A stretch of DNA of 63,363 bases, the filler included, from Streblomastix strix (taxonomy: Eukaryota), in assembly GCA_008636045.1 (NCBI GenBank). It is 2 parts of 2 records of this genome, joined end to end, with 100 filler letters (N's around TTAATTAATTAA, not from the genome) between each part and the next. Parts side by side here need not be neighbours in the genome. Positions count along the whole stretch, not along the records: positions 1 to 31,676 come from SNRW01000079.1; 1 more part is not named here. The stretch is one strand, 5' to 3'. Positions within the stretch are counted from its first letter, which is position 1; each line of letters starts with the position of its first letter. Shown piece after piece: positions 1,280 through 54,120 of the stretch. Both the position numbers and the translations under genes were made by a program. The notes beneath the pieces are model-generated. The model was not told the DNA's origin and did no database searches. It worked only from the letters and a program-made list of their open reading frames with translations.

Positions 1280-1990
1280 AGCGATGAATATCACAGAGAA
1301 GCTCCAATGAGAGAGAATTAAAAGAGCCTCTATTTGGTCTTTATGTATCTTATTTAGAACTCGGGGGATCATCTCCACTGGGCAGTCTATCAATGGCCTC
1401 TCGCCTGTCCAGTTAAACGAAATTGCGTTTCTTTTTACTGCTCTTTGGTCCAGTTAAGTACCGCAGTACCTTTCACATCGTTTCATCGTTCGAGACGCGA
1501 AGAGATCTATTGTTGGTATAAATTACAGGAATGTTGTTGCTTGGCTGAAAGCCGAGAATATTATTGAATAATCTTCGTGATGGGCCATCTTGCTCAATGC
1601 ATCTGTCTTGTTGTTATGAATATTTATTATGTATTCCGTAACTAAAGATATGTTCAGAGTCTCTAATAGCTGGAATATTATCCTTGCAAGGTGGATCAAA
1701 GCACTTGCTGGTTTCCAATGTCCTGGACAGTACTCCACTGCGGTGTTATCCGTTTTAAGGAGGATACGGTCGACTTTCATTTATTGAAGAATTGGTGTGA
1801 ATGCCCTCAAAGATTTTAGAACAACCGCAAATTCCCTCTGGTTGTTTGAATTTATGTGTCAATATCCACACTATTCTTCTGCATCCATTAATTCGCCATT
1901 CTTAATATTTTGCAAGTCTTATCAACCATTCTCTGAGGCATCCGTTGTTAGTACGATTATTGGAGATTAAATAACAATTTCTATTGGATT
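1280..1990 (-). pseudogene. DIRS RNase H plus DNA N6-adenine methyltransferase-like remnant
   Basis: TDAS, TDN and N..TDALS RNase H motifs, followed by DLFAS and IPRVL.KI...W motifs. Confidence 0.8.
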
Positions 1991-2149
1991 GTTAAGTTTA
2001 ATTAACTCTAAATATATATATAAATATGAGAGAACTTTCTTATTGAGTTATATTTCTAAATTCAAGGTGCCTTTAGTTACTTCTTTACTCTTAAAAATGT
2101 TTAAAACATTCATATATAGAGAGATCTGTTTGATTTGAAACTTAAGAAT

Positions 2150-2900
2150 GTTTTACACCTCAATTAATGATGCAACATCTCTAATTCTTATTCTCTGGTT
2201 ATATTAAGTTAATTCAATCCAATTTCCCAACATAATCTTCAATATTCTTCTCTGTTGATGAAGAATTAATACTTCCAATGCGTTTGTTTTCCATTTCCAA
2301 TCGAGACGTTAGATCCTTCTATTTTGGATTAGCCTGTGTTTGGTTGGTTAAAGGTTTAAACCTAGAATCTGGATAAAAGTAACAATTTCTAATGCATTTT
2401 GAGCAATAGAGAGTTTTTACTATCAATGTTGGTTGTATTGTTTATATAGTCTTGGTAATGAAAAAAGGGCTATTGCATCAGCGGAATTGAAGGCCAGCAT
2501 AAGTGTAACTACGAATTTAGAAAGAGAATCCGAAAAATGGGCGAAGAGTGCCAGAAATCCCGATTTGATGAAAAGCGTCTTTCAAATCTACAGTAATCGC
2601 GAAGTCCCCTTGGAGTAAGAAGTGTTTATGCTGTTCCTAACCTACTAGTTTAAAGAATCAGGATCATGTTATTGAATTTACCCATCTATAATCCAAGATT
2701 TTTCTAGGTTTACTGTCTGCACGCATTACTAAAAACGTTGGATTGTAAACATTTACTTCATAAATTTTAACTAAAATCCCAGATCTTATTTCTTCTTATA
2801 ATTATTTATTAAACTTTGATATCATATTATGAGAACCTTAATAATTACTACATTTTATTTTGGAGAATAATAATTCCACATCCTAAGAGGAGGTCCAATC
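2150..2900 (-). pseudogene. DIRS reverse transcriptase remnant
   Basis: FLV..RKILD and DLKDAFH motifs present. LPFG is decayed to LQFR followed by TGA, and no YxDD motif is visible. Confidence 0.8.
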
Positions 2901-4589
2901 TTCTGTAGTTCCTTTCTGAATCGTGTAACTACACTTAATCTAGTTCCAAAACTCTATTCTTTACTACAGTATATCGGGAACTGGTAGATTCTTCAAATCT
3001 GCGTAATCTTCGAGAAAATTGTTCTCTAAAAGTTTCTCCTCTATTTGTGATAAATTGTATCCCTCATCCAGACAATTTGTCTTACTCCTCATCGTTCTAC
3101 TCCTTGGACCTCAGTATGGTCCTCTCTTGACCTGTCTCGATTCATTGTGCTGCTGGTTATTACAGCTGAAAATTCTATTATTGTAATGTGGGTGTAGTTT
3201 ACTAATTTGTTGAATTTGGCAAAGGTAGAAGACTTTGAAGTTACTTGGAAGTCTGCGGGAACAGTTGTTAATACTAGGTAATAGGAATTGATTGCTAAGA
3301 GAAGAGAGGCTGTTGATAGCTGAGCGGGAGCTATTGTTGACGAAACGGTACTTATTGAATAAATCCTTACTGAAGTATTTAATTTTCTCCCTATTTGTAA
3401 AAGATTTTCCCTAATCTATTCTTTTTTGCAGTGAATACGAATTTTGGTAATTGTTATGATTAACCTTCAAACTAGATCCATCCTCTACATACTCCGAACG
3501 AGTCACTAGTATATTATATGTATTCATAAGGGAAAATCACTTAGAAGGGTATCTATTATTTGATTATTGGCTTAGATTCCGGAGATTTCTTTGTTTCAGT
3601 TAGGATTTTTGCAGTTTTTGCAGATTCCTTTATGGTTTACTTTGATTTGTTCACCTAATACTCTATGTTCCGAAACATTTTTTACTAAAGCAACTTTAAA
3701 TTAGTCAGCGACTATAGAAATTTCTCGCCTTTGCTATGCATTACCAACAATAATCCTGGAGGCATTATGAACAGTTAGTATCTAACGTGTCGCCTCGCGA
3801 ACATCATCTAAAACTAGAGCTGTCACAGCAGACGCACAAACATGTTGAACGAAAATTGCGAATCGTTAAGTTTCGACCTCAATTTCCGGATTATTCTCAC
3901 CGGAGCTGTCGATAGCCTCTTTCCATCGAGTTCTAGACCTATAATCACTTCACCTCTTTCCAAGAGCTTGATTCTCTCGAGCTTTGTCGCTCTCTCACTT
4001 GTCGGGTCTAGAATTCTCTCCTTCTGACTGTAATATTTCACAATGACCTTAGTTTCAGCATCCAACATCTAAATCCGTTGAGTCTCTTCCTCCAAGTCTG
4101 GTGTAATGACTTTAAAATCTTATTCCAAAGGTTGAATTATTAACTTTTATGTTTTGATATTTCTTTCAGGTTCTAGGACATCTGGATCGTTCAAAATATG
4201 AACAAGCATTTCCTTCCCCTGGAGATAATCATCCTATCCTGAAAAAATGGATATAAATTAAATAGATGCCAAGTATTTTTTGTTTAATCTGGCCCATTTT
4301 TAGTGGCCCTGTATTCCAATAAATGGATGTTGAAAAGGTAGGATTGGTTCAGATAAAACAAATCAATTAGGTTAATTATTATCTATTAAAAACCACATAA
4401 AGATTTCTTGGTGACTGAAACCAATTAAAGAAGTTTTATTCTTAACCTGGGTCCATCATCCAATACAATTCCTTCTGATGACTGCTGCTGTAACAAAACT
4501 ATGCCCTTGCAATATAAATAACGCAAAATAATTTAATTATTATTCATGTTATAAGGGTATGTCCATTCAGTAAGATCACTTCGTATTTA

Positions 4590-5330
4590 TTTATTTAAAA
4601 ATTTTAAAAATAATTTTTTAAACAATAGCTGAAGTTGAAAATTTTTCAATTTGCCTCCGTTGTAAAAACGAGCAAAAATTATAACTTTATTTTTTGTCGT
4701 CATACATGTAATATTATTAATTAATTTTTATTATAATTTTATTAAAATTTTTTCGGATACATTGATGGACAATTACTGCGTTTTTAGCGGCATGCGTTCT
4801 TAAAAACTGATAATTTTTGTTTTTTCGTTTTTTTATTCAACCCACCATTTCAAATTCCTCAATTATTGTAATTTATTATAATAAACATTAATATTTTTAT
4901 TTAACAATTTTTCAATTTAATTTATCTCAAAAATCGCTCATTTATTTTACGAAAAAAAATTTAAATTGAAATTTCGCCAATAAGTATAATTATAATTATA
5001 TTTTTATAGATCTAATTTTTAATAAATAAATAAAAATAAAATATTTTACAAAAAATATAGTAATTAAGCATGAAATGAGCGGAAAAAACGAAAAATTAAA
5101 AAATTATCGGTTTTCACGAATGTGCGCCGCTGAAAACGTAGTTTTTGTCCTTCAATATACCTAAAAAATTTTAAAAAATATTTAAAATTAAAATTTTGTA
5201 ATAAGATTTGCTTTTTGGTGTTGAAAAAAAAATGAATATATTTTTTGATTAATTTTTCAGAGGATGCAAATCTAAATGTTTGCAACTCCAATTTTTGTTT
5301 ATAAATTTATTTTAAATTTATTTTAAATTA
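4590..5330. mobile_element. Foldback/MITE-like element with diverged ~260 bp inverted arms
   Basis: Reverse complement of ~4750-4850 (aaaattatcagtttttaagaacgcatgccgctaaaaacgcagt) aligns with ~5070-5170 (aaaattatcggttttcacgaatgtgcgccgctgaaaacgtagt). ~4600-4680 similarly matches ~5240-5330. Confidence 0.75.
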
Positions 5331-5430: not shown

Positions 5431-5600
5431 CAAGTTGGCAGATGGGCTGATTTGACAGCAGATTTTTTTATAAATCCGGACCCTGTGCATGTAGTGCACG
5501 CTATACAGTTAAAAGTCTTTCACTATCCGCATCAATTAATGGTGCCAATTTCACAGGTTTCATTGATATTTTATGACTCGATGCACTCGGTGCAACATAA
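5431..5600 (-). repeat. Diverged isolated copy of the Polinton-like subterminal repeat family
   Basis: Reverse complement resembles 22690-22853, e.g. tgcaccgagtgcatcgagtcataaaatatcaat versus tgcactgagtgcatcgagtcctaaaacatcaat. Confidence 0.7.
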
Positions 5601-8600
5601 CTTTGCATATCATATGTTCCTAAGCAAAGCATTCACTAAAAATTCCATCAATAAATTTTAGGTTTCTGTCAATGGTTAGCCATCAACTATGCTATTAATT
5701 AATTTAGTAATTATGAGAACAAGGAGAGTGCTATTCGTTTAAAGATTATTTTCATTAATTAATTTCATTAATCATAACCAAATATTATGATCAATATCCA
5801 CATTCAATCACGTAATCTATTAACATATTTCATATAAATATTCTGTTTACCTTAACTATACACAGACCTGATCTTTCATTATTTTAATTTCAAATTTTAA
5901 TTCCATTATATATAATTATCATCATTTATAAAAATTTTATTTGTGGGACACTGCCGTTGTTTCTATAACTACTAATGTGCCATATTTTGATGAACCGTTA
6001 AATTCGAAACGCAACCAAATCGATGAAATCTTTCAAATTGTATAATCACATGTTATTTGAAAGATTATTGAAGCATAATTTAAACAAGCAATCGAAATTG
6101 GCACATATTGAGTCACTAAACAGATTAGTGTATGATATGAGAAAAGACGAAGTGTCACTATTTGCATGAACAAGAAAAGAAAGTGGAGAATATATGAAAT
6201 ATTTCAACCCATAAATGAATATCAAAAACTCAAATTTAAATAGAAAGACGATGAATCATCTTTTGTGGCCTCAATGAATATGCATAGCTACAAACTGTAT
6301 ATTGAAGTAGTTGAGATTATGAACCTGCTTTTTAGAATTTTGCAATGAAATAGGAGATATAATAATAAAATTCTGTCCCATCTAAAAAAAACATGAAAAT
6401 GTTAAGCGAACTCGAAAATATGGAAACTAAAATTTATGAAGTATATTAAACAAGTGGATGATCATTGGATCTATTATTAGCTTAATGATGATTATAAATA
6501 TCAATTTCACAAAATTTGAATTCATCAGGATCTACTGAGTAGAAATAAGGCTCTTCTTGAATGCCTTATTCCGAAATTGTTATATATTTTTGCACCACAT
6601 CATAAATAAATTAAATTCAGAGAACTTTGACAAGGATGAATTAATGCACTATGAACTATAATCTCATCAACGCTTCCGACAAATTATGAAAATTTAATTG
6701 ATATTTCAAGATTCATACATAAACTCACAAAACCATTTATCGAAGATCTCGGATACAACTGATCACTGAATAGAATTGATTTATTACTTGCAGAAAAAAA
6801 TTAAAATAATCAGTATTTGCTTGGATTTTGTATTGGAAAAATGAACATTAATAATTGGAGAATTATAAAATAATCTAAAGTAGTTCTTTCCTTAGAGAAA
6901 TTGTAAATTTTCGGGTGAGAGTAAAATTAGTATAAAAATCGCACATGCGAAATGAGAATTGATTATATTTAAGACATCGGTACGGTATACACTTTTAAAT
7001 AGAAAATAAAATCGATTGGATGATGATTTATAGCGCATAAAAATAAATCGATATTCTCTTAACTTGAAGATAGAAAAAAAGAAAAGATTTGAGTTTACTG
7101 ATAGAAATTTCATATCAATAGATCACTTTGTATCGATAGAAAAAGGTTATTTAGGATCAAGTGAAAGAAGCAAAAAGTATAAAGATGAAAAAAAGAATTA
7201 TTAAAATTTAATGTCTAAGAATAAAGTAAAGAAAAGATTATTTAATAATAGAAAAAATAACTAAATCAATTGCAATGGATGAACAAATCTGTGAAAATAA
7301 CGATATAAATATTACTATTACATAAAACAACATTTAGATCAAATCAAGAATTCTACTATTTGGAAAGCCGTGCACCCATAAATTAATATATTTGAATTGC
7401 AAAATAATATTTATTAAAATAATATTAAGCAAAATAATTTGAAATAGCTAAAGTATATGGATAAAAATCAAATGCATTATTTGATTATCAAAGATTCTAC
7501 ATTGATAAAAGATAACTTATCATAAATTATAAATAGCAAACACCCATAATTGAAATAATTTTTTATTATTTAATCAGCCTTCCAAGCACAAACAGATACT
7601 GCTTCGATAATAACAAATGATAAAATCCTGAAGTTGAAAAAATTATTAATTAAATTAAGAAAAACTTGATGATTTTGAATTACAAGAAAAGAATTTGGGT
7701 GAATTAGACGATATGTGTTCAAAATTTGAAATTTACGAGTAAGGGGACATTTTATGTATAATAACAATAAATAGATAACAGTATAAATGATTTAGGAATT
7801 ATTACAAATGAATAGAAACAAAAAAACAACGCAATGGTAATAGCTACAACTGTCAGCTATCATTTAAATGATATTATAACGATAACATTCCTAATAGTAG
7901 AATCCAAATTAGTCTGTACAAAATAGGACTTAAACACATTCTACTTCACAAAATATTAAAATCAAAACGAGTTACAATAAAAACAGTAATAAATTTAGTG
8001 ATTTGACCTTACAATTTGGAGTTTCTGTAAAATAATCCACATATTGAGTAATAGTTTAGTAAAAAGAGGAAAAAAATTCTGGAAAATTGAAAAAAATTCG
8101 AAACTTGCTGAAATTAATAGGAAAATAATATTCATAATATTACGAGGTTTGATTTTCTATATACACAAGGAACTACTTGACAGATACCCAGAAAGTTCTG
8201 GAACTATTTTGCCTAGAGCTTAGATATCATTATTCGATTAGATTTTAAAAAAAATTAGGTTAAAATTCAGTCGGAATTATAGAAAGAACAGAGTTTTAAA
8301 TAAAAATAAGACTATATCAAAATGAAGATGAAAAAGAGGTTTAAAAAATCGAAGAAATACCATCAATCAATAATATAGAATATTAAATTAGGCAAATCTC
8401 AAAATTCTCAGATTAAAAGAAATTAGAATCATAAAAATAACTTGAATATTTCTAAAACATCCACGGTTATATAGAAGATGATTAAGAATTTGATTTCGCT
8501 TCTTATAAAATATAGTAGAAGTCTAAGAGAGAAAAATAAAAACAAGATAACAGTTTTTAGAGGAAGTTAAACTATTACCAATTAATTTACATGTAGTAGC

Positions 8601-22278: not shown

Positions 22279-23076
22279 AGTAGTTATGAGAATATGGAGA
22301 GTGCCCCGCATTGAAAAAAATAAAATATAATAATAAAAATAAAATAATGAATATAAATAATAATAATAAATAATGAAAATAAATAATATTAAATAAATAA
22401 TGTAAAAGAAAATAAACACTTGAATATGATTAATGAATGTATGATATTGAATATAATTATTGGTATTGATTAATGAAGTTGATTAAAATATTGATTAATG
22501 ATGTATGATTTTTGAACGCATGGCACTCTCCATATTCTCATAACTACATTGTGAAGTTGATGGAGTTGGTTATTGGATTTGGTTGATTGATTTGGTTTTT
22601 TGATTTGAACATTTGAATTTTATTATATTCGGAAATCTAAAATTATTGATGAATTCATTAGTAAATTGAACATAAAATATATTTGTTTTTATGCACTGAG
22701 TGCATCGAGTCCTAAAACATCAATAAAATATATGTTATTAGCACGTATAAATGGAATAGGATATAAATGACTTTTGACTGCACCAAATGCATCGAGTGCA
22801 TCGGGTCAGAAATTTTTATAAAAAGCTGTGGCCAACTGGACAACTGGCCAACTTATTGAAGATTTCAGCTGCAGGCGGAGGTCTTACCGACCTATAAAAT
22901 TGAACATAATATATATTTGTTTGACTGCACCGAGTCCTAAAACATCAATAAAATTTATGAAATTGGCACGCATAAATGGAATAGATTATGAATGACTTTT
23001 GACTGCACCAAATGCATCGAGTGCATCGGGTCAGAAACTTTTATAAAAAGCTGTGGCCAACTGGACAACTGGCCAA
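22279..23076 (+). mobile_element. Polinton-like left terminal repeat: AGTAGT terminus, 26 bp inverted repeat (22280-22305 / 22522-22547), tandemly duplicated subterminal unit ending in the conserved box
   Basis: gtagttatgagaatatggagagtgcc and its exact reverse complement. Two ~220 bp direct copies end in aaaagctgtggccaactggacaactggccaa (22821-22851, 23046-23076). Confidence 0.7.
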
Positions 23077-23099
23077 TAATTAAGAAAAAAATAAATATA

Positions 23100-23900
23100 A
23101 TGGATCCAATTTCATTTCTTAATGGCTAAATTAATTATTCACTGAAACAAAATAAATCAAATATGATAATAATTATAAAGATTCAAATTTATTTTATTCA
23201 ATAGAAGTATCTGTAATAAGATTAAATTCTACTAAATTTTATATATCATTATTGCTTCAATATATCTAATCTAAACAGCGAAAAATTTCTTCTCATTTTT
23301 ATTTAGCAAAATTAATAAAACAATTAATTGTTTCACTTAATATTTTAATTGAAAAATTTTGCATCTTAGGTACATTGAAATATGTAATCCAAACTGATTT
23401 AAACTCGTATATAAAAAAATTTCTTGACATAATAAATTTTTAAAAAGTCCATTTCCTTATGAACTCATAGCCACAGATGACTATTAATTGGAATTACATA
23501 AAATTTTTTCAAATTTATGATTTCCATATAAATTTTAAGAATTTTGAAATTACTGATGACGAATAGTAACTATATCTACCAAATTTCTAAACAATAAAAC
23601 AAAAATTAACGATTTTAATCGATGATATTACTAGAGTTATTTTAAAATATTTGATTACATAATAGTGATTAAAATACCTGTTAATCAAATTTAAATGAAT
23701 ATCAACTATAAAATAAATAGATTTTCACTAATTTATATTTTAGTTTGTTCAAATATAAATAAATACTCCTTTTCTTCTGATAATCCTAATCAAATCATCA
23801 GTTAATCAATTATTAATTTATAAAAAAAATAATTCTGCGTATCATAAAACAATTTGCTAGCGAAAATTAATTGTCATAAATATTAAAATATTAATATTGA
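23100..23900 (+). pseudogene. Decayed hypothetical ORF just inside the terminal repeat
   Basis: ATG at 23100, ~24 bp after the box; coding-like composition with breaks; no motif recognised. Confidence 0.35.
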
Positions 23901-23934
23901 TTGAGATATATTTATCAACATTAATGAAAATTAT

Positions 23935-24390
23935 AGTAGTTATGAGAATATGACGAGTACCCCAAAACAAAGAAATCAAATAAATAAAGAAAATAAATTA
24001 TATTATTTAAATAATGATAATTATACAATGGAATTAAAAATCTGATATTAAATAATGTAAGACGGAGTACTCTAATGGTATAAATTAATGAATGTCACGG
24101 ATAATAGTGATTAATGTATTAGATTAGTGAAGTACGTAAATGAAGTTCATTATTGCGGTGTATTCTTTGTATGTATGGCACTCGTCATATTCTCATAACT
24201 ACATAGGAACGTTAATGGCTTAATTGATGAATTTGGTTATTTGAAATCTAAAATTGTAGGTAAAAACAATGAATAAATCATTGAATTTTAAACATAGTTT
24301 ATATTTGTTTATGATTAAGCTGCGTTGGATAAAGTGGACTGAGTTATAAAACTTCAATAAAAAGCTATGGCCAACTGGACAAATGGCCAG
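23935..24390 (+). mobile_element. Second Polinton-like left terminal repeat (module A)
   Basis: AGTAGT at 23935; inverted repeat 23936-23961 / 24177-24202 with 1 mismatch; box aaagctatggccaactggacaaatggccag at 24361-24390. Confidence 0.7.
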
Positions 24391-24789
24391 ATTAACGAAA
24401 AATAAATATTGTTCAAACGTTAATTGAATCATTTATGTCTTCATTAACATCTTAGTCTTTGTCATATTTTTTTTTAAGGAGTTCATTAATTATATGCAAA
24501 TTTTTAATATTTGCGATAATTTTTTTAAAAATTTTTAAGTATAAATAGTTGCATATAATTAACTTTAGAAACATGATTTGTTTGATTTTATTTGTATCTA
24601 ATTCTTGTATTTTTGCTTTTTTCTCTAGAAGCAATTGTTGCCTGTTTTTCATCGGTATATTTGTTTGGTCTTCCTTATTTTGATAAATTTAATGAATTCG
24701 TTTGTGCTGACTCAGTTTATGTTGTTTCATTGATAATTTCATTAAATGTCTGATTATCTATCGTTTTTAATTAAAATAGAAAAATGAAA

Positions 24790-25830
24790 AATAACTAATA
24801 ATTATAACTTTTGTTTCATCTAAATAAAATTTTATAGCGTAATATTCTGGAATAGATTCTTTATTTTCACTATCATATTTACAATAATATGAAGGTATTT
24901 TTATTATATATATTTTATAAGAATGATTCAATAATTTGCTTAAAACATTACCATTTATGTATCGAATAAATATCGCTAATTATTTGAAATTTTTCCTATA
25001 TTTCAAAAATTTTTATTATGTTTTCGAAATCGAGATGTATTAATATTATATTTCCAGCCTTAAATAATAATATGCCCTGTTATCGCTATCTTACTAATCA
25101 TCGCTTTAATTTCTTCATCTATGAAGGTATATATAATATCCTTCAAAATCACTTGAAAATTGAACTTAATATTGGCTATATTTATTTTTAAAACGCTAGA
25201 TGTGGTGTATTATTGTATATGCCAACGACTATTTACATTTTTTTATTCGTTGAAAATTAGTTAAATTTATAATCAAATGCATTCCTTATTGTACGAATTA
25301 CTGAATCGACAACTTGATTATTATTAGTGAATTTTTGAATCAGTGAAATAACTATTAATTTTATTCTATGAACAAAATAAAGCAAAATAAGAACCATTAA
25401 ATCCTTTCTCTCCATCACCACGAATATTATTTACGTAATAATCTTTAATTAATTTTTCAATAATCCAACTACTTATGCGGCTGATTTATCTATCAATGGA
25501 TATACCACCTAATATTTCATATTAATGTTTATGCAAAATAGATACATACCTATTTTTCTTTTTTGCTAAGCTGTTTGTTATCTTATTTCGTCATATTCAA
25601 AGATAACATCTTCAAATTCCTCATTATTTTCCTGCAAGTCTTAATCGACAGAAAAGACTATATTTATTTTCAAAATTCCTGATTTTTGAGAGAAATATGG
25701 TCGTTGTAGACTTTGTAGTGATTATAATTTATAATCTCTAACAAGTAGGTATTGGTTATTAGCATAGTTTTATTTATTGATTTTTCAAACAATTTTAATT
25801 TTGTTTTAAATGGAAAATTGGGCATATTTT
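24790..25830 (-). pseudogene. Retroviral-like (RVE) integrase, Polinton type, decayed
   Basis: 'RPYFSQKSGILKINIVFS', 'YLFCININMKYQVVYPLIDKSA', 'NNIRGDGEKGF', 'NQVVDSVIRTIRNAF' and 'IYNNTPH' occur in integrase order. Confidence 0.75.
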
Positions 25831-26257
25831 CCTCTTCATCAGCAGCGGATAATTAACCTGCTAATTATACATCTTTATCCGATTGTTTATTTTTTATTTA
25901 TTCTTTTATTTTGTTGATTCATATTACAATTAAACTGAATAATAATAATAGTACCAATCACTAAATGTTCGTTTTCCAATAATTATCACATCGGCTTTTT
26001 CTATAATAATTTCAATGTGTTTTTATTTGCAATTTTAAAGCTATTTTATAAATTCTCGTAGATAAATTTTGTACTAAATTTTAAATGCATAACATCGGTA
26101 TCTTTTTATGTTTCAAATTCAAACTCATCCCTTTAATATTTATCTCCGGCAAATGACCTAAATATGTCTACATACAAACTATTTCCGTTTTACATTTATT
26201 TTTAACAAAAATAAAACTAATTTATATTCAAATCGTTAAAGAAATCAATTATCAATC

Positions 26258-26400
26258 TGGCCATTTGTCCTGTTGGCCACAGCATTTTATAGAAATTTCT
26301 GAATCAATCCACCTAACCCACCCGGTCCAGTCAAAAGCTATTCATTAATTGTTCTTTTTTATCGTGTCAATTTCACAGATTTTGTTGATGTTTTCGTTGA
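26258..26400 (-). repeat. Inverted (right-hand) copy of the subterminal box closing module A
   Basis: ctggccatttgtcctgttggccacagcattttat. Shares the variant caaatggccagatt with the 24361 copy. Confidence 0.8.
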
Positions 26401-26594
26401 AATTTTTCTCGAATATATAATTATAAAAACTCAATTGCTATCCGTTAATATATGAAAATTTTGCTCAACATTAATTTTCAAAAACAACCATTTACATTAA
26501 TTTGATGTTAATCCAACTTTATCAATTATTATTATGATTATCTGAGCGATTGATAAGGTGGTAAATTTTATGATAATAGCTCTGGTAGTTCTTG

Positions 26595-26860
26595 AGTAGT
26601 AGGCACAATCGGAGGCGTGCGTCGTCTTTATGAGTCTTACCCCTATTTATCTGTCATTTGTTAAAAATAAAAATAAATAATAATTACATTAATAAATTGG
26701 ATTTTTGGGTGTTTCGAGTCATAAAACATCGATGAATTTTATGAAATTTGCACGAGAAAATAGAATAGGTTATGAATGACTTTTAGGTGTTCCGAGTGTT
26801 CCAAGTGCTCCGAGTCAAAAACTTTTATAAAAAGCTGTGGCCAACTGGACAACTGGCCAA
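26595..26860 (+). repeat. Left terminal repeat of module B
   Basis: AGTAGT at 26595 (no hairpin seen); subterminal unit 26700-26860 ending in aaaagctgtggccaactggacaactggccaa. Confidence 0.7.
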
Positions 26861-26891
26861 TAAATGATAATAAATAAATAAATCTCCTAAA

Positions 26892-28004
26892 TCATTGTCT
26901 ATTTTAAACGAACTTATATTTAGCTAAGTCATAACCACCTATTTATTGTTATCTCTATGCTATATATTAGCTAAATATTTACATGGCTTATCTAATTGCT
27001 TCCTTAATCCTAGTATCGACATCTTTGTCTTAATATAGTTGAGCAATAACGGAAAGCATTTCTTTCTTATTTATTCTTTTAGCAATTGGAAAATATTCGT
27101 AATATCTTTTTTCTACATGAATTTTATTATTTCTGTTATATTAGTCTATTTTTCTTTCTTACTATTCTAATCGTTCAACAGCAGGATTAGTAAGTACTGA
27201 ATTCCAAACAGCTGCTATGACTTATAATTTGGTTGTCATTTGCATTTATGCGCTTCCATTATCGTTTACATGTTTTTTTGTCATATTTGTGAATGCTCTG
27301 AAACTATAACACTTTGTTTCTCTTACTTTACGAGGCTAAGTTTATGATAGCCATTTCATATAAGGACCATCTTTTATTCCTGATAATTTTAATTTGGCTG
27401 CCAATGCAGTTCGCTCAACATCATCAACATCTGTATAATATTATTTCTTCCAATTTTCTTAATGTTAATTGTTTTTATCACCAAATTTTACAACTATTGT
27501 TTAACCATCGATTGAATATATTGCATTATTTTTCCTATCATATACATCCTCATTATCAGGAGTGGCTTCATTATCATCTAAGACTTATTCAAGCACATCA
27601 AATCGATTACAATATTATTTATCTTATATATATTTTTGAGCACTGACGGAGGACGATAATCAATCAATTTTCTTAATGTCCCTGTTTAAGTAACCAACGA
27701 GTGTTGCAAGAATATCCCCTGCTTCTTCCTTAAATTATGGGCCTGTATATTTTCTTGTTGTTTGAATAAGTTATGGCAGGAACGGCAGCCTATCATCCGG
27801 TTTTGCTCGTGATTTCATTCTGTCCAATCTTGTGACTTGTGCTTCATAATAATCGTAATCACCCTCCATTCCATCAACTTCCATCATACTCTCATCTAAT
27901 TACCCACCTGAACCTTACTTTCTTTTTGCTACAAATTTTAGACTTTTGTTTGCATCTTTTTCGTTAACTATGTATTGTATTTTTTATAAGGTTAATGATG
28001 ACAT
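26892..28004 (-). pseudogene. Hypothetical element-borne protein (~370 aa, frameshifted), divergent from the ATPase
   Basis: ATG at 28004 and TGA at 26892, ~30 bp inside the box; intronless and coding-like under TAR=Gln. Confidence 0.5.
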
Positions 28005-28045
28005 TCTAATATTTTTTGTTAAAGAATTTAATTTATTATTTAAAA

Positions 28046-28832
28046 ATGGCGAGTTTTACATAAAAAATGGATAAAATGTTAAAAGAAATAAAAGTGACTA
28101 AGCATGAGGTTTAAACTATTATTCATAATGAATTAAACTTTATAAATAATTCTGTAAGTTTATTGATAGGTTAGCGTGGTAGTGGTAAGATATACAATAT
28201 CTATAAAGAAATAGTTAAATTTAACTAATTAGAAAAACATTGTTAAACTCTACTCATATACATCAGCGACTCAAATAATGACATTTCTTATAAAAAATGA
28301 AAGATTTAATAAAAATTCCAACATAAATTGTTCCAAATGCTGAAGCGGATTATGTGTTGAATTATTTAATCAAATATAAATAAGCGTACTATAAAATATA
28401 AAAAAAATAATTATAAAAGAATTATCGAAAGAATCAAAAGATAATATATTAACCAATATATTTGGAGCTAGTGGAGGAGGTAATTTTGACGTTAAATTTT
28501 CTCATATTATTGTTCTATTTGACGATGCAATGAGTATATTTAAAAATAAAAATAATCCACTATTTAAGAGTATATTTAAGAACAGATTGCCCAGAATAAC
28601 ATATTTCTTTTGTTTATAAGTCACCATTGGTTTAAATACTGCTATTAAATCTTATCTCGATTCAATATGATTCTTCGGTTCATTTATCAAATTAAAATTT
28701 AATTAATTTTTCTATTAATCATCTATTCCATCTGATAAAGAAACAATATGGTATGAATATGTTCGACTTACTAAATAGTAACAATTAGTGGTATAATATG
28801 AAATGAGTAGAATAGTTGTTAGAATAATATGA
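28046..28832 (+). pseudogene. A32/FtsK-like genome packaging ATPase, decayed
   Basis: Walker A 'LLIGQRGSGK', Walker B 'IIVLFDDA', and 'FKNRLPRITYFFCLQ' (Arg-finger/Gln motif); ~260 aa with lesions. Confidence 0.8.
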
Positions 28833-28845
28833 AAAAATTAACGAT

Positions 28846-28995
28846 TTGGCCAGATGCCCAGTTGGCCACAGCTTTTTATGAAAATTTCAGAGTCGGTCCA
28901 CTCAATCCACACGATCCAGTCAAAAGTTATTCATAAGCCATATCAATTTTTCGTGCCAGGTAATGCTTAAACAAAATGACTCAGAACATCCAAAA
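28846..28995 (-). repeat. Inverted (right-hand) subterminal box closing module B
   Basis: ttggccagatgcccagttggccacagctttttat...ccagtcaaaagt is the reverse complement of the family consensus. Confidence 0.8.
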
Positions 28996-29159
28996 ACTAG
29001 TCTAGTTTGTGTTCAATCCTATTCAATTAATCTTTGGCACAAGTTTTTATATATATTTAACCTTATATTTTTGATAATTTATAACCTCCCAATTTATATA
29101 ATTTATATAATTATTACGTTGTTATTTTTGATAATTATTATTAATTTTAGGAAATAAAT

Positions 29160-29706
29160 TATTTGAAATCGTTTAAGGTCTAAAATTGTTTTATTTCGTT
29201 GGTCATTCCTTCGACCCCCTCCTTGAGTGGAATTTCTTCTTATTCATCTGTTTCTATTTATAATTTTGAAGAGAGTTAATTGTTTTTTCAGTTGTTAAAT
29301 AATATTCTTTCCATTTTATTTCAACTGAAATAAATTAAATTCTTGTTCATAATTGCGGTTCAAGTTATATATTCATGCATTCTTTTTTTATAAAATTATC
29401 AGTTAAATCCTATTTGAATATAAATTTTGTTCCATTAAATTAAATATCTATCAATTTTTTGTTTAAATTTTCTTAGACGGTTTCATTTTTGGTCATAGCA
29501 ATACATTCTTATTCATTGTACAATAATGCATATTTTAATTCAAATATCAATTTACGATTAAACCATTTCTTGTATTTTCTTCGAATATTTAATATTGCAT
29601 TATTTTTTTCATCAACTTCTATATATTAAACGGCTAGAACATAAGCTGTTTCTTTGCCTTGTGGCATGATTCTTGGTTTCCATTGTTATATTTCATTATC
29701 TTTCAT
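29160..29706 (-). pseudogene. Decayed hypothetical ORF (MKDNEIQQWKPRIMPQGKETAYVLA...)
   Basis: Intronless coding-like stretch between modules; no motif recognised. Confidence 0.35.
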
Positions 29707-29952
29707 TTATATTTATTCTTTTAATTAATTATTTTTAGATTTCGTTTCTTCCATTTTTCTATCAAATATTAATGAAATTTTATCAGCCAAAGATGTATAA
29801 TCATCTAATTGATATTCAAAATGAATTCTTTCATCTAATAAAACCGTTATTTCATTAACATAACCTCAATATTTAATTTAGATTGCAAACTCCAATTATA
29901 TTTTTATATATAAAAATGTTAATAAAACTTTATAGAGCCAGAATCCAATATT

Positions 29953-31060
29953 AGTAGTTAATGAAAAGGACGATGCCCTCACATTGATAAACGCAGTGAT
30001 TTGCCCACATCAGAAATAACCAGTGATATTACGAATTGCTGACATATGAAAAACGAATAGATTATCCTGAACTAAAAATCATGGAATAAATTGATATTAA
30101 TAAAGAAATATGGATAAAATAATAAACAATAAGATTTATGAATATCATTAATAATGAAAAATAATTGATATGATTTACGATATGTGTTAATAAAAATAAA
30201 TAATTGATATGATTTCTGAACCTCACAAACGAATAGGATTTAAGCAATATTTCGGGCATCGTCCTTTTTCATTAACTGCTTATAGCCCAAATCAATGATT
30301 TGACCGAAGCGTACTAACATATATTGGTTATTTGACTATGTCCGATTAAGCTTTCACTGACGAAATTGAGATAATGGCATCGACTAACTGATCGATGATT
30401 GAAACACATTATTTGATGAAATTAGTGATGATGAACAGTTTCAGAATCGATTATAATGGTTGTTTTTGGAATCTACGAGTAAGATATGACCTTAATATAG
30501 CGTATCAAAGTACTATGAAAAACTAAGTTTTTAATCAGAATTTTGACCTATCATAAATTTATTTTATTTTTATTATATAGACTGAAAAATCATAGAAAAA
30601 TTGAAGTTTTTTGAATGACCTGAGAATCAATGTACTAGCCAATGTTGATACGCTGATCACAAATATAATGTTAAAAATGAGTGGATGGACTATTGGATAT
30701 GGCTAAATATGAAAAACAATGAAATTGATTAATGGAATGGATGAATGAAGTTAAATGTCTATACAAATAAAATATGGCAGCCCCTTTGAAAATGGAACAC
30801 GGAATTGTTCCACCATTAGTGTGTGTGTGCTAGCGGAGTGGATAAATGAAGTGAATTGTCTAGGTGGAACAAGGAACGGAACGGAACAAATCCTAGAGAC
30901 GCCAGCAATTTTTGTCTGTCATCTGCCATATGCCATAAATTTGAATTGTGGAGAAATCGATTGAATTACCTTAAATGAAATACAAGACAGATAAGACAAA
31001 ACAAGACAGAAAAATATAAGACGTCTAAAGTTGATGGACAATTGGACAGATGGACAGTTG
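29953..31060 (+). mobile_element. Third Polinton-like left terminal repeat (module C), divergent subfamily
   Basis: agtagttaatgaaaaggacgatgccc (29953-29978) with near-perfect inverted copy at 30254-30280; variant box tggacaattggacagatggacag at ~31035-31057. Confidence 0.65.
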
Positions 31061-31116: not shown

Positions 31117-31676
31117 ATGGCATACCTGGCAAATAACACTGAAGACAGTAAACTTACTGAATCAACTGAAAAGAGCATTAAATGTATGACACTTGAGAAA
31201 GGATCAAAAAGGCAATATAATCGTAAATCAAAAACAAATGAGAAAGCTAAAGCATTAATTGATTAGATGATTATTGAATAGAGTAATGGACAGACTAATG
31301 AATAGATAAATGAATAAAAATAAACTAAAGAATAACCCGAGTCTTAAAATGATTTTGATGTATTCTATGAAGTATTTTCTGAATGTTTCACTAAAGCTAA
31401 TGAATAAATATAATCCAAACCAATCAAAGAGAGAATTGATGGAGCAATCATTGATTTATATGAATATCGAAAATTCGCTGATCCAAAATTAAAAAATAAG
31501 TTATTAACAGGACATGTTGTTGATTTGAGCTTGTGCAAAGACGATAATTTATGTATTATTGATTTTGATATCGATCATGCAGGTAAATTGAATGAAGAAG
31601 AAAAAGAGAAAATACGATAAAATATAATCAATAATATGCTTCCAAAGAATGTTGGTTTAGTTCTAACTGCAAGAGG
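31117..31676 (+). CDS. AEP-superfamily primase-polymerase (Prim-Pol), N-terminal part, cut by contig end
   Basis: Open 186-codon frame ending 'NLCIIDFDIDHAG...VGLVLTARG', matching hhhDhD motif I and the start of the T.xGG.H motif II. Confidence 0.65.
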
Positions 31677-31776
31677 NNNNNNNNNNNNNNNNNNNNNNNN
31701 NNNNNNNNNNNNNNNNNNNNTTAATTAATTAANNNNNNNNNNNNNNNNNNNNNNNNNNNNNNNNNNNNNNNNNNNN
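31677..31776. other. Artificial contig-joining linker
   Basis: N44 + TTAATTAATTAA + N44, exactly 100 bp; a six-frame stop spacer. Confidence 0.97.
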
Positions 31777-32319: not shown

Positions 32320-32579
32320 TTGTAAACAACCCAGCAGTCAATAAAGGCCTCCACTCTATTCAAATTTGTATTACTTACTGTCTTACGTTTATTTACAGCA
32401 TCAAAAAGCCTGATGACCGCTGTGGAGGTTTCTGATAATAATATATAAAAACAAGTTCGCATGTCACCGCTACGTAGAATTTGTTATTAATGTCAGTTTG
32501 TTTGATCTTACAAATTTTAAGGGTTGATCGTATTTCAATAAAGTGTGGAGGACATTATTGACGGGTGGGTTGTTTACAA
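32320..32579. mobile_element. MITE-like element with ~34 bp imperfect terminal inverted repeats
   Basis: ttgtaaacaacccagcagtcaataaaggcctccac versus gtggaggacattattgacgggtgggttgtttacaa; no clear TSD. Confidence 0.65.
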
Positions 32580-46662: not shown

Positions 46663-47479
46663 TATTTAACCATTTTAATTTGGATTCTTTATTTTATCAT
46701 TTTATTGATAGGATTTTAATTTGTCATTTTTAATTTTAAACTATATTGAATTACTCTTAATATTTTATATTTCAAGATATATTGTATTTTTTCTTAATTT
46801 TACAAAATTTTATTTTTTTTTCACAATAGCTTTTATTTTTTTTATTGAAAACACTTCTCATTATTCTCTAATATTATATTATACAATTCACCCTCTAATA
46901 TATATACACTTCAATAATGGGAAATTGTTATATTATATCTTTTTATTCATTTTTCATTTTATTCAGGGCATTTATTATTATTGTTAATTATCTTTACTAT
47001 TCATATTTTTAGTTTATACTTAATTCTTTGTGTTAATAACATCGACTTCTTAGTTTATTGTTAATGTATTTCAATAAATCATAAATGATAACAAAAAACT
47101 AATAATATATTTTTTGACCTTCTAAAATCTTTGAAAATTGATTTTGTATATTTTAATTTAGGCCTGGGCAAATGTGGAAATTGTGAAATTTCAGTGGCAA
47201 ACAGGTTACTTTCCAATTACAAAAAAGTTTTTTTAGTTAATTTCAAATCCAAATACCGGGGCGCCAAAAAGTCCATGCACAGTCTTTATCTAAATGAATA
47301 TAATAAAATAACAAAAATTATTAATAAATTTTTCTTAGTCTAGATATTAGTATAAATATCTTTCCCATTCTTTTTTTGTAATGTCTGTTCTGGCTGAGAT
47401 TCGGCTTTAAATCAAAAAAATTAAAATAAAACAAATAAATAATTTATATACTTCATGTAAATAAAAATTTATAATAATC

Positions 47480-48960
47480 TTCATTAATATTTCTAATATT
47501 TACCTGATTAATCATTTAAGCTTTAATATCTTTTCCTGTGTAATATTCTGATATTATATTCATTATTCCAATAATATCATCTTCTGGTATATTTATTCTT
47601 TGACTAATTAATTAATTGGTTCATTTTAATCCTCCATTTAATTTTAATAATGAATTTTAATTTGCATTTGTTTTGTTAATCCAATTTTGCAAATTGCCTC
47701 GTGATGTATCACAAGAGATAAATCTCCTACATTTGCTTAAATTAATCAAATAGAAGTTTCCTGCTGTTTGCTTCGTGTAGCCAATAAGGAAGTTATTCTG
47801 TTTAAGACGAAAAATATTATGAAAAATGTACTTATTAAGCAAATTATTGACAATAACAAACGAAATATTTTGATTAAGAATCAGAATCCACAAATCCATA
47901 AATTTTGATATCTACCATCTTCATGTTGAATTGACTTTTCAAATGTATTTTATTTTAAAGAAACTACTAGATGCGATATAAATATCAAATAGCACTTGTA
48001 AATTATAACCTGCAACTTTCACCATTTAACGGAGGAAACCTTCCGTCACAATTTAATTGAATGACTGAACGTACAAATTTCGCAGCACTTGATCAAAAAT
48101 TAATATTCAAAAAACATTGTATATATGCTTAAAAGAGTACATTCTCTATGAATAATTATTTTTAGCTTTAATTGATATTGTTCACAAAAGAAAAATAAAT
48201 TTATTCTATTTTTTATTTTTGTTTCATACTAATCGAAACAGTAAAATTTTATTATAATATCATACTTATATTTATATATATCCTTTATATATTTCAATTT
48301 TAAAAATGTAACATAATTAACATTTAATTGCTGGCAAGAAATTAATCATTTGATGTTTCAGTCAAAATTTAATTGGTGTGACGGAACCGTCTCTAGGAAA
48401 AATTATGACGGAACCGCAAATTTCCAATGAATTAATGGTAAACATATCTAAAATAAATATTTTCATATTATTTTAATGAATAATACAAATATAAACCAAA
48501 TTTATCCGTAGTAACATTTTTTTTAATATATAAATATAACGCATTTTCTCAATTTTTACACTAATCGTTAGTCATAGCATTTTATCAAGATTAAGTCTTA
48601 AAATAATTTACATAAGTTATATTCGTAAATTAAATATTTTTATTATTTAGATTTAATGTCATATTGTCATACGCACCATAATTCGTTAAGTTTAATTTGA
48701 ATGGATCAGTGATTTTCTAATATGTTACAATTAATTTACACATTACTGTTGATTTTCCACTTCCAACAGCTCCCACAATATAATGATTTCCATTAATATG
48801 AAATAATTAAATCTTCATTAATGGTCTAATTTCATATTCATCCATTAGATTCTTATTCGCAAATGTTATTTTCTAAAATTCTAGTAAAATAATTTTCAAA
48901 AAATTTAAATGAACATATTAAGTTTGATCTCAGGATTAATGAATTATTCGTTCTATGGCA
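47480..48960 (-). pseudogene. P-loop ATPase (probable packaging ATPase), interrupted by a MITE
   Basis: Walker A 'HYIVGAVGSGKST' at ~48750-48790; possible decayed Walker B 'FVIVNN' at ~47845-47862. Confidence 0.6.
47990..48450. mobile_element. MITE-like insertion with inverted arms
   Basis: ttccgtcacaatttaattgaatgactgaa (48041) versus reverse complement of ~48355-48387 (ttccgtcacaccaattaaattttgactgaa); tgacggaaccg occurs twice in the right arm. Confidence 0.6.
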
Positions 48961-49599
48961 TTAATTTTATAATATCAATTCTATCAGTCTCCATATCTGA
49001 ATTTTTGAAGGATTAGTTGAGGTTAATGATTTGAAATAATAGGATAAATAAACATATGATCAATTAAAATAACGCTTTTGTTTCTTATAACTAATGTAGG
49101 ATAAAATTGAAGCGATAATTAAATACATAAAACATATCAACAAATTTATTATTTTTGATTAAGTTAATATTAATTGACAAAGTTACCGTTTTATTCATCA
49201 TTCACAAATTAGTTATAAATATATTTTTATTCTTCATTTGCTTTAGAGAAAATGATCTTTTTTATTTATTATAGTTATTTGTTTAAATTTAAAGATTTTT
49301 TTAATTAAAAGATACTTATTTATGAATTATTTATCTATTTCAATAAATAACTAATTTAGATAATCTTCTATATCAACCATTTTCCTTATATTTTTTAATT
49401 GTTGTTATTGATTAGATAACATTTTATTTGTTCTCATTAATTTTTAATGCAATGGATGGATTGATTCTTTTGTATCATTGTTGAATAAATTTTGAAATGC
49501 TTCAGTTTTAATTTTAATTGTATCTTTATCTTGAAAGTGAAATTTGAAATATTCATTGAATAATTAATTTATTGGCTATAATATTGCTTTTTTCATTTA

Positions 49600-51371
49600 A
49601 TTTCAAAAATAAATCCAAGCATCTAAGCATATGAAGGTCAAAATAACGTAAAATTTGATAATTGTTTAGATGTTTCATCTGATAGCAAAACCTTAAAATA
49701 CTTTAGCGATGTAATTAAATGAAGCATATAAAGATGATGATAATTATAATAGAAAAATTAACATTAGTGGGCTTAAAGACCCACTAGCTCCAATTACAAA
49801 AAATATGGCATAAATATCGTAAAAATATTGTAGAAATGCAGTTTAAGAAATTGAGAGTTCAGAGTGATTACGTTTTTAGTTAGGATTTTAATCTACATGT
49901 GGACCATTTTATTAATTTTAACTGATACGTGATGGAACGACATTATGCGATACTTCTATAGATGCTAGAGAATGTGAAGCTATTTGTTCGAATTCTTTGA
50001 GTAATTTGTATCCTAGTAATAGTTTTAATGTTTCTCCTTTAGAAAGTATCTTTTCTTGCAATCGGCATTTTGTAATATTATTCGATATATCTCCATTTGA
50101 AATTAATACAAAAGTTATAGATATAATTCGATGGTTTTTTTTAAAATGCCAATTGAAATATCATTTAGTTAAGTGTTGATCTTAATTAGTTAAATTCAAA
50201 CTGTAATTCATTTCTGATTCTTACTCAAAATTATTCTGCACTTTATCTATAACTTTGGATATAAGATTATTTATTGGATTTGAAGGTTGTATGACTTGAA
50301 TATTAAGATGCAATTATAAATTTGCACATAAACTATCTAATGTTTCCACTTAAGAATCCAGAAATAGTATATCTATTAAATGAATATACTTAAAATATAT
50401 TTTCTTATAAGAAATATAATATAAGAATAGTTAATATTTAAAACGCGGCATTAGTTGATAAATTGTTATAAGAAAATATCAGTAAAATAGATAATATCAA
50501 ATTTGACATTTTAGAGATATATAATATATGTTTTAATATTTAAAATATTAAATGAATAATTATCAGGATTAGAGAATAAAAAATTGTCAACATTCCAACC
50601 TAAGTATTTAGATTATAACCATCAAATTTTCCATTTAGTGGTTTTACTGAAACAAGTGGAGTTATATAAAGGAATATGTCATTCCCTAATATTAAACAAT
50701 ATTTTCGGCATTTGCCATACTTTAATATCTTATATGGTTTTATCCTGTATAATTTTATGATTTTGATTTAGTTATTGGCTAACGACATGTAATTCCAGCT
50801 CCATATGATACCACAACATAAACTATTAATTGTGTAATGTTTGACTATATCGTTGATTAAAATGTTATAAGTGCTCCATCAGATCTATATCATTCATTAG
50901 CATTTGAAAGTATAAATTGCACTGATAAAAAAATAATTTAAATCGTTGTAGAGAAGTGAATGTATTCAGCATTTCTACATTATTCAAAGGTATTAAAGTT
51001 ATAAAAACATTATAAGCAAAGAAATATCTGATAGCAAAGAAATTAATAACAGATGATTCATTTTTGCGAAGCTGCAACTCTTCATAATTAGGATCAAGAT
51101 CAAATATATCAGTTATTTTTCATAATACTTTGACTAAAGAAATAGTAGATAATGCAACATAAAAATAAAATGAAAATTAGAACTAAAATAACTTAAACAA
51201 TTTATTACATTGAGAAATTATCCTGATCTGACTAAAGTAGCTATTACTCCAATGCTACATTATTTATGTGATGCATTTATAAGAATTACATTTGATAATA
51301 ATCTTGATCTATAAATTTAAAATGCTTATGTAATTGAAAAGTTAAGAGGTAGATCAATTAATTCTGGTTGA
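49600..51371 (+). pseudogene. ~580 aa element-borne protein, candidate major capsid protein (decayed)
   Basis: Intronless, divergent from the ATPase region; 'FDLVIGQRHVIPAPY..VDQNVISAPSDLYHSLAFE', 'TPMLHYLCDAFIRITFD..GRSINSG*'. The capsid role is inferred only from size and context. Confidence 0.45.
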
Positions 51372-51391
51372 TCAAAAAAATTTATTTTTCA

Positions 51392-54120
51392 ATGACAAAT
51401 CTTACTTTCGCAAACCTATTTAATTTGTACTTCACAAATGGTCTTAAAGATAGAGTGCCAATTATTGTTCAACTATCCAAGGGAATAAATGATCGTTTCA
51501 TTAAATTTATTCAATTGTTTATTTTTTAAATTAATCATTCTAGTTGTAATGAATCGATTAAGAATCACATATTTAAACTGCAAAATCGTCCGGAAATTTG
51601 ATTAATTACATAGTTTTAATTATATATCAAAACCACTAGAGTTAATGTTTAAATCAATAGAAATATCATCATTCCATAATATTGGATAACTATATCTTTA
51701 AACCAAATTCAAATCTGCATTTTATTGCATATTTCTTGAGGTATCAGTAAAAAATTTCGTTTAATTTCAGCATCAACGATTCAAAATAAAGTATATTCTG
51801 AATATTAAGCAGAATTAGGATCTGACTGAATCATTTTCAGAGAAATTTAAACCTTTATATTTTATATGGTTAAAGTACCACATTAGTAACTTTCATACAT
51901 TCCATACATTATCGATTTCAAAGTACTTGGTTCAATTGGTTCATAGTCTAATTTATTTTTTTAAAAAGTATTTCAATTTGCTGACAATATATATTTATTT
52001 GTTCCACCTTATTTAATAATTTTGCCAGCTATTATAGGTGATAAAAATGTCTTTACTGCACGAATAATTTAGTCAGTATGTAGATTAACAAAATTAATAG
52101 CGATTTTAAAAAATATATTCAAAAAACTAAAATTCTTTTTAATCTCATTATCAATAACTTATAATAATGTATTACTTTCTTTAATTTATTTTTGTTACTC
52201 CACTTATTGTTATATTATTTTACTTACCTATTCTTACTAATTAATCTGTTCGTCTTCATCAATCATATTTAAATCACTTAAGTTTTGATCAATTTTTATT
52301 ACAAAAATAATCAGTAATCATTATTCAACATGGTAATCTATACTATTATCTGTACATTTAACTCCATATTAGATATATTATTTGTATTTTGTTTGAGCTT
52401 ACATTTATTCAACTACTTCTTTTAACTCACGATATTTTATTCCTCTATCCATATTATCACGTAAGACTTTCATCTGTTAGTTATATTATTTAATTGTGTC
52501 TTCAATATGTCCATTATATCTCTTCCTTATCAATTTATAAACTTGTTATGAATGACTTGAATTATTACCATATCGTTTTAATAGCTTATAGTAAGGTTAA
52601 TTATATTTATTTAATGTTCGTTAATAGAAATCATCACCACATTAATATATAGGTTCTACATAAATTTCCTATGGTAAATTTTAAGGATTAACAAACAATT
52701 TATCTTTGACTATTTCTGATTGTGCAAGCATTTTTGTTATCGGTAAAATAATTAAATAGTAAAAAATTAGATATATAAAATAATTATCAAGTATCATTAT
52801 TAGTAATCTCAGATGTAGATGCATCTGATAAACGTTCAAAATCCCTGTTGATTATATTAAGTTTTTCAATGTAATTCTATAAGACATTACTCAATACTGA
52901 AATATTAAAATTTATAATTAAAACTTCTATCATTTTTAATAAGTATTTCTGATATGTGATTTACCAATGCTTGAATGGGATCTCATTAATGGTTTTTCTA
53001 ATATAATTTCTATTTCACTTTAATTCTCTTATGTAATTAATATCCAAAGTACAATGAAGCTATCTGATGTGAATATGAAGTCATCTATTCTATTTCTAAA
53101 ACTTACTGTAGACTAAATTGTGTCAATAATGAATTTCATTACTTTTATATTTGGATGAGAAAGATAAATATTTTTTTCAACTTCCTTACGTTCAACTTAT
53201 GCAATTACTCTTTCAACTTTTTACTATTTATTAGCCTTTAATTTCTTATACGATCGAACAATTTATGATTCAGTTATAACATCTTATTATTCAGCAACTT
53301 TCTTCAAAATGCCCATATCGCAGATTTACTACTCTTTATTCTTGATAGTTTCATCAACTGTAGGATCTGATTTAATATGATTAGTTGCATCATCAATCAA
53401 TTGCAATCTAATTTTATCATCTTCAGCTAAATCTTTATGCGTAATCTCTGAAAATTAATTCTTGATTTTTGCCAATCGAATTGAGTTACTTTCAATGCAC
53501 TTTATCATTTATTTATTTAAAAATATTCAAATGGACTTACAACACGCATTAAAGAATTTAATAGAGAATGGAACAAATATTGAATACTTTGACAATGGAT
53601 ATGTAATCCAAATTAATAAAGATATTAAAGTGTTCGAAGAAGGAAAGAAAACACTTAAAAAATTAACATAAACATAATAGAATAAATTACTGTTATAAGC
53701 TAAAGGTGGGGTTGCTCCAAAGAAAAATGTTTAAAAAGCATCTTAAAAATAAATTGATGATGAAGATTTTATATCTTATGAGCCATAAGATGAATAAAAT
53801 GAAAGTGATAATGATTTCATAAGCGAAGTCAGAAAAAAACCATTAAAGAAGTAAATTAAAAAAAAAGGTTATTAAAACATCAAAAACTTCATAAATTAAT
53901 TATACTAATCCACAACTTGATTTGGAGGAACTAATCAGGTTGAGAACAGAAAATTCATTTATTAAATAATAACATTAAGATGCTGTTAAACAAATAGAGA
54001 AATATAAATAAAAACTTAAACGATATAAATAACCAAAACAAACTATTGAAAATGAAGATAAAGAACCGTAAGAGATACAGATTTAAAAAAGTTTAATAAG
54101 AAGAACCCGTATAATTTGAA
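51392..54120. other. Tightly packed decayed intronless ORFs on both strands (+51392-~52200, -~52200-52740, -~52780-53500, +53530-54120)
   Basis: Virus-like packing with very short intergenic spaces; e.g. MDLQHALKNLIENGTNIEYFDNGYVIQ from 53530. Confidence 0.45.

Follow-up and report, generated by a model that had tools for sequence, protein, structure and literature searches.

What are the AGTAGT hexamers that recur in the genome of the oxymonad Streblomastix strix, a gut protist, each heading a short sequence that returns in inverted form a few hundred bases further on? The question arises from a stretch of 63,363 nucleotides (GenBank assembly GCA_008636045.1; positions 1 to 31,676 come from SNRW01000079.1), here called the window. 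A first-pass annotation had noticed three such pairs in it and had taken them for a maintained terminal hairpin or a duplicated terminal-protein or integrase site, rather than for independent miniature inverted-repeat transposable elements (MITEs). We consider it highly probable that the AGTAGT units are the ends of Polinton-like elements. The reading that we prefer, with moderate confidence, is that the window holds the ends of several nested and decayed Polinton/Maverick-like elements, in which the inner copy probably lets the 3' end fold back.

Hairpin and box units at the AGTAGT termini

The hairpin-box unit is a real, conserved structure. All three inverted pairs were verified where the annotation had placed them (22280/22547, 23936/24202 and 29953/30280; ends A, B and F), and a fourth, more decayed copy (end G) was added.

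22279..22548, + strand: end A hairpin; AGTAGT-led outer arm 22280-22305, loop of 216 nt, inverted inner arm 22522-22547
23935..24203, + strand: end B hairpin; outer arm 23936-23961, loop of 215 nt, inner arm 24177-24202
29953..30280, + strand: end F hairpin, of a divergent subfamily; outer arm 29953-29978, loop of 275 nt, inner arm 30254-30280
5436..5973, - strand: end G, decayed and standing alone; AGTAGT at 5973, inner arm reaching 5706, box 5436-5457

The arms pair at 26 of 26 positions in A, where a weaker extension reaches 39 bp, at 25 of 26 in B, and with one mismatch and a 1-nt gap in F. As had been claimed, the outer arm begins with AGTAGT, and it does so in all four window copies; the hexamer is perfect in none of the four inner arms (TGTAGT, TGTAGT, AGCAGT, AGTAAT). 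The spacing from terminus to inner arm is 268-270 nt in A, B and G. When the window was scanned for inverted pairs (score of at least 17, arms 100-600 nt apart, GC of at least 25%), five were found, namely A, B, F, a pair formed by the boxes C and D listed below and one unrelated pair, and each of 12 block shuffles gave none. The folding z-scores against shuffles were -7.2 for A, -7.4 for B and -3.4 for F.

The arms had been said to match within each copy and to differ between copies, while the loops diverge. The statement on the arms holds for A, B and F, whose outer arms each find their top score in their own inner arm (25, 23 and 16, respectively). In G the arms are 78% alike and both carry an ACAA variant, and the inner arm scores 19 against the outer arm of A and 10 against its own. 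The arms of G thus match each other only in part, and arm co-variation is clear in three of the four copies. The statement on the loops did not stand: those of A and B are related (73% alike, against a shuffled maximum of 68%).

Read from the terminus inwards, the unit consists of an AGTAGT-led 26-bp arm, a loop of 215-275 nt, the inverted arm, and then related AT-rich sequence with a 9-bp repeat in three copies and, past a spacer, an 8-bp repeat in three copies, this last array being what we call the box. All four copies run on past the inner arm to a box, whose far edge lies 572 bases from the terminus in A, 455 in B, 538 in G and 1104 in F. The annotation had seen copies 1 and 2 lead to a box; this is correct, except as a restriction, because F too reaches one, in divergent form (31035-31056).

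22663..22862, + strand: box unit 1 of end A; 9-bp array (three copies) near 22776-22806, 8-bp array (three copies, the box) 22829-22850
22897..23087, + strand: box unit A2, a tandem duplicate of unit 1 (93% alike across 155 nt); box 23054-23075
24306..24400, + strand: end B shortened box unit; box 24368-24389
26249..26413, - strand: box unit C, internal and lacking a hairpin; box 26258-26279, aimed at the integrase start 60 nt off
26706..26867, + strand: box unit D, internal and lacking a hairpin; box 26838-26859, with the stop of the 370-aa gene 33 nt away, and in the same place in 3 of 89 relatives
28838..29030, - strand: box unit E, internal and lacking a hairpin; box 28847-28868, with the ATPase stop about 14 nt away
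30979..31060, + strand: divergent array and box of end F; 8-bp repeat in three copies, 31035-31056, not self-complementary

Box-only units (A2, C, D and E) and full hairpin units number four each. A 6-bp stem was found in five of the seven boxes folded, and those of F and G retain weak stems only. The F box, a direct repeat, scarcely folds (-0.8 kcal/mol); the conserved trait is therefore the 8-bp period and not the palindrome. Boxes B, C, D and E lie 14-60 nt from gene ends, and never within the intact part of a gene. Box copies fixed in this way between gene modules have no printed description in the portions of the literature searched.

Probable element borders and the genes between them

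If these units are ends, homology should start at the hexamer. It begins at AGTAGT in the four window copies, in the metagenomic locus L047, and in a 1472-nt contig (record 6) where 1197 other letters precede it; it starts 4 nt earlier in an F-type contig (record 14) and 1 nt earlier in one joint. These contig cases are no census, being drawn from 32 listed pieces out of about 3500 and 16 out of about 9100. Target-site duplications (TSDs) around both arms were sought and none of the four hairpins has matching flanks, so that these are not ordinary MITEs. Elements of 270-330 bp with 26-bp terminal inverted repeats (TIRs) would have the fitting size and shape, and one contig, in which an arm ending in ACTACT is joined to the 370-aa gene, could show either the end of a MITE or a genuine right-hand terminus. 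However, all four copies continue into related sequence and a box, that is, their right flanks are homologous, and all four inner arms lack a perfect end motif. We regard the MITE explanation as very unlikely indeed, and on this point the annotation was right.

The six bases 5' of AGTAGT resemble a palindromic AAYRTT target, and the last five (AYRTY) fit five of the six flanks compared (22279, 23935, 29953, 5973 and L047:5000 among them), a pattern chosen post hoc. A 5-bp duplication, ACATT, around G was rejected, as it appeared in one of five tests with a chance of 6.6% per 40-nt window. Ends are present in both orientations within the window.

The earlier annotation had missed the genes that surround the units. 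Remains of an integrase, of a family B DNA polymerase of the protein-primed type (pPolB) and of an ATPase were found, with copies of the box between them, and all are broken or cut.

23099..23775, + strand: pPolB fragment, beginning mid-gene 3' of box A2; its relative P0134 passes the Pfam DNA_pol_B_2 cut-off
24413..26198 (ends approximate), - strand: rve-type integrase gene, broken by frameshifts and stops, between boxes B and C
26478..26663, - strand: short conserved segment with a small open reading frame (ORF), between boxes C and D; in 7 of 89 relatives it comes after the 370-aa gene
26892..28004, - strand: 370-aa gene, with a single TGA inside; its model is weak and mostly helical
28052..28832, + strand: P-loop ATPase gene, broken; Walker A and B motifs, 3 relatives
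29031..29865 (lower end approximate), - strand: gene X, broken; 5' of the 370-aa gene in 3 of 89 relatives
31117..31676, + strand: candidate start of a primase-polymerase gene, cut by the assembly joint; 40% identical to P0120

The pPolB fragment has 21 relatives, and among the 20 scanned P0134 is the one above the DNA_pol_B_2 cut-off; the gene is missing from element B. Many of the 33 relatives of the integrase carry the UniRef name 'Integrase catalytic domain', and Pfam rve matches were obtained in seven of the nine scanned, every one below the cut-off. In integrases the third acidic residue, usually E, has a catalytic role; the relatives show D at this position (NRVVDS). Ten unnamed relatives from other metagenomes (P0112-P0119, P0121 and P0122, on contigs of 2-8 kb) have the same core motifs, and the integrase family therefore reaches beyond this host. 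The 370-aa protein gave a mainly helical model with a predicted local distance difference test (pLDDT) score of 52 and zero Atlas matches. The ATPase family had no Pfam or NCBIfam match, its model reached a pLDDT of 34, and its motifs suggest that it is probably the packaging ATPase, which in Polintons is A32-like. The gene at 31117..31676 is a probable primase-polymerase, to judge from DFD in the window and GGLHVY in P0120, which we take to be primase motifs; it had no Pfam, PHROG or PDB match. In general, the PHROGs, NCBIfam and PDB sequence searches returned nothing useful.

Gene order was read from mis-spliced gene models of other contigs. In the 370-aa family (89 models), gene X stands first in three, the ATPase lies antisense in four, box D follows in three, the short segment in seven and the N-terminus of pPolB in one; among the integrase models, 4 of 33 chimeric ones carry a polymerase motif C (YGDTD/YCDTD) 5' of the core. 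This order points to one element type, which runs gene X, ATPase (opposite strand), 370-aa gene, box, short segment, pPolB, integrase, end. Box B is joined to the integrase end on one contig each of runs X3 and X4, which come from one sample, and a B-type hairpin flank to a D-type array on one contig of X1, which may be the source of the window; contigs of X2, the only run from another study, cover the inner arm and the arrays. Divergent contigs cover position 22519 (51), position 26803 (105), the integrase (40) and the ATPase (24), and this depth was not taken as copy number. The idea that B-C and D-E are separate present-day mini-elements flanked by TIRs was ruled out, because the gene order crosses boxes D and E on other contigs, and a TG...CA mini-element from C to D was dropped as its flanks show no duplication.

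We read the window as element A (an end with a pPolB remnant) interrupted by element B (which has no pPolB) and then followed or interrupted by F; that B lost its pPolB through recombination between two boxes is a guess. The relatives are labelled Streblomastix strix in 89 of 89 cases for the 370-aa gene, 3 of 3 for the ATPase and 22 of 33 for the integrase. Of 75 loci in metagenome contigs one, L047, is real, and the others match little past a 17-mer. Viral contigs gave no matches for the box, the 370-aa family or the integrase family, and the scan of prokaryote genomes gave none. No carrier was listed among RNA data either, which says nothing about expression.

Several observations concern the surroundings. 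The window has a G+C content of 25%, its long frames appear only when TAA and TAG are read as Gln, and a ribosomal protein S2/SA gene lies immediately left of the region of hairpin units. By eye, a MITE-like inverted repeat pair is seen at 4760-5190, just inside end G, and a frame resembling a remnant of a hAT-type transposase at L047:1500-3600, upstream of the AGTAGT end; 1150-4360 (- strand) presumably holds remains of a retroelement with reverse transcriptase and RNase H. A 35-bp inverted pair (32320-32354 and 32545-32579, with 190 nt between them), which lacks AGTAGT and shows no sequence relation to the units, sits at the start of a frame for a cysteine-rich membrane protein. Direct repeats at 47032-47152 and 54913-55031 (74%) may enclose a second broken Polinton-like set (47032-55031), with a P-loop motif on the - strand (near 48750-48900) and, at 51398-51493, a match to the N-terminus of an integrase model.

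Fold-back, protein site or rolling circle

The three hallmarks of Polintons found here are the end motif, which in the class is (AGT)2 or (AG)3 and here (AGT)2, an rve integrase and a protein-primed family B polymerase. Membership in the class is incomplete on present evidence; the unit works like a Polinton end and its element is probably a member. In the available part of a survey of vertebrate Mavericks, (AGT)2//(ACT)2 is the commonest end motif and the TIRs measure 46-1447 bp (PMC8097293). Further likenesses are the P-loop ATPase, the long end region (455-1104 bp to the box), the mostly decayed copies and the use of the host genetic code. In contrast to known Polintons, the last 26 bp recur here in inverted form a little inside the end, one and the same repeat box stands between gene modules, and the integrase relatives have D for the third catalytic E; a jelly-roll capsid, a cysteine protease, a second end and the TSD of 5-6 bp were not seen here. 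Within the parts available of the literature searched (including PMC3627910, PMC8097293, PMC6431247, PMC5449611 and PMC4196379), we found no description of a subterminal inverted copy of a Polinton terminus.

How might the inner copy act? Replication would start with protein priming by pPolB at the (AGT)2 end, and one strand would be displaced. The freed 3' end (ACTACT) would pair with the nearby inner copy across the 215-275-nt loop, giving a local racket or panhandle form, and this pairing would restore a duplex origin of 26 bp with no part played by the far end. Because its hexamer is imperfect, the inner copy would not serve as a terminus itself, and in A and B the last base of the end stays unpaired. 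The repeat arrays may bind an element-encoded protein, their copies between genes may act as control or recombination sites, and AT-rich sites, frequently within older copies, would be where the integrase inserts the element. We infer that a single-stranded end folds back and, granted that the ends are Polinton-like, we incline to this as the function of the inner copy.

Several points weigh against this. The arms of G have drifted apart; the arm duplexes differ by 0.2-2.3 kcal/mol between strands, which amounts to no strand preference, and for each of the four whole units folding is slightly better on the top strand. The 9-bp direct repeats match within a copy and differ between copies as the arms do, yet they cannot pair, and within-copy matching is thus no proof of folding. 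The hairpins readable in full are four only. The labels of the ATPase and the primase depend on motifs, and no capsid or protease was found in the window with Pfam in 40 frames (no capsid reference was run against it). Finally, no element with both ends was seen, the block stopping at the artificial joint 31677-31776; this joint consists of two 44-N runs around a 12-base AT linker, and its sides may not be contiguous.

Part of this evidence would be expected if the ends are the same Polinton-like ends and the inner copy is a double-stranded second inverted site for the integrase or the terminal protein/polymerase, some 240 bp inside, which changes with protein specificity or by gene conversion. 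As the direct-repeat arrays also match within copies, protein binding alone could account for arm co-variation, and both the lack of a clear strand asymmetry and the near-constant spacing in A, B and G suit such a site. The arms of A and B are, moreover, closer than a drift of 15-19% predicts (P of 0.004-0.08 each), a weak argument, as arms of this kind get noticed. However, 26 contiguous matching bases are long for a protein site, and the further mismatches of A, as well as the sole mismatch of B, are G-T pairs on the strand bearing the 3' end. This explanation is possible, if clearly the less probable. The annotation had offered both a terminal hairpin and a duplicated protein site; the terminal, non-MITE nature of the units was borne out, and the data fit either option. 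A different origin would make the stretch from AGTAGT to the box a non-autonomous rolling-circle element (Helitron2/DINE-like), with C, D, E and A2 as 5'-truncated copies in Polinton debris. The 5' hairpin and the palindrome-like 3' box, several listed contig pieces that end at the box end 23075-23076, G without Polinton genes nearby, box-only copies as numerous as full units and the lack of a TSD all suit it. Nevertheless, the 3' asymmetric terminal inverted repeat (ATIR) is absent, in the sense that in none of five box regions do the first 8 or 10 nt recur as their reverse complement (at most one mismatch); the F box leaves no conserved 3' hairpin, the base before AGTAGT in L047 is C and not T, boxes B-E keep close to gene ends with D in the same place on other contigs, and Rep/helicase was not seen among the ORFs scanned. 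We consider this origin quite unlikely.

Known systems and the meaning of a proposed self-paired end

The fold-back that we prefer has partial counterparts. In adenoviruses a displaced single strand rebuilds the duplex origin through its inverted repeats as a panhandle. A single-stranded racket has been modelled for Polinton copying, in the part available of PMC4196379. The end described here would rebuild a duplex origin likewise, with the difference that its partner lies about 240-300 nt inside the same end and not at the opposite end. Streptomyces telomeres, with Palindrome I/IV and end patching by Tap/Tpg, also have an internal partner for the terminal sequence; there, according to the available part of PMC5449611, fold-back repairs a truncated 3' end, and the long-range I/IV 'Rabbit Ears' pairing is not the one used in repair. 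No homology links the two, the units here form a single stem with a long loop where the telomeres pack small palindromes together, and the element is one that integrates. Helitron2, Helentron and DINE-1 elements resemble the unit in a 5' end that can pair downstream and in a short palindrome at the other end, and differ in that here there is no 3'-ATIR, the box palindrome is not conserved, no 5' T is required and the neighbours are of Polinton type.

A more far-reaching version, which we hold to be doubtful, would see a lineage with self-contained fold-back origins, in which the 3' end primes or repairs on the near inverted copy, and the modules (integrase/pPolB; 370-aa gene/ATPase) within inward-pointing boxes are the trace of former segments or of box-driven loss and exchange. 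Endogenous viruses of S. strix are known from their capsids, with 820 capsid genes in Table S1, and are placed in a Trichomonas-like 'Metamonada group' in the part available of PMC10120064.

The copying of Polinton ends has so far been a model from sequence alone. An end with its own pairing partner is a short, defined substrate on which fold-back and duplex protein binding could be told apart by compensatory changes, and a proper count of the co-variation is possible, since one genome contains hundreds of related elements. The motifs of end and box can also delimit such elements in the assemblies of oxymonads, in which spliced gene models run across them.

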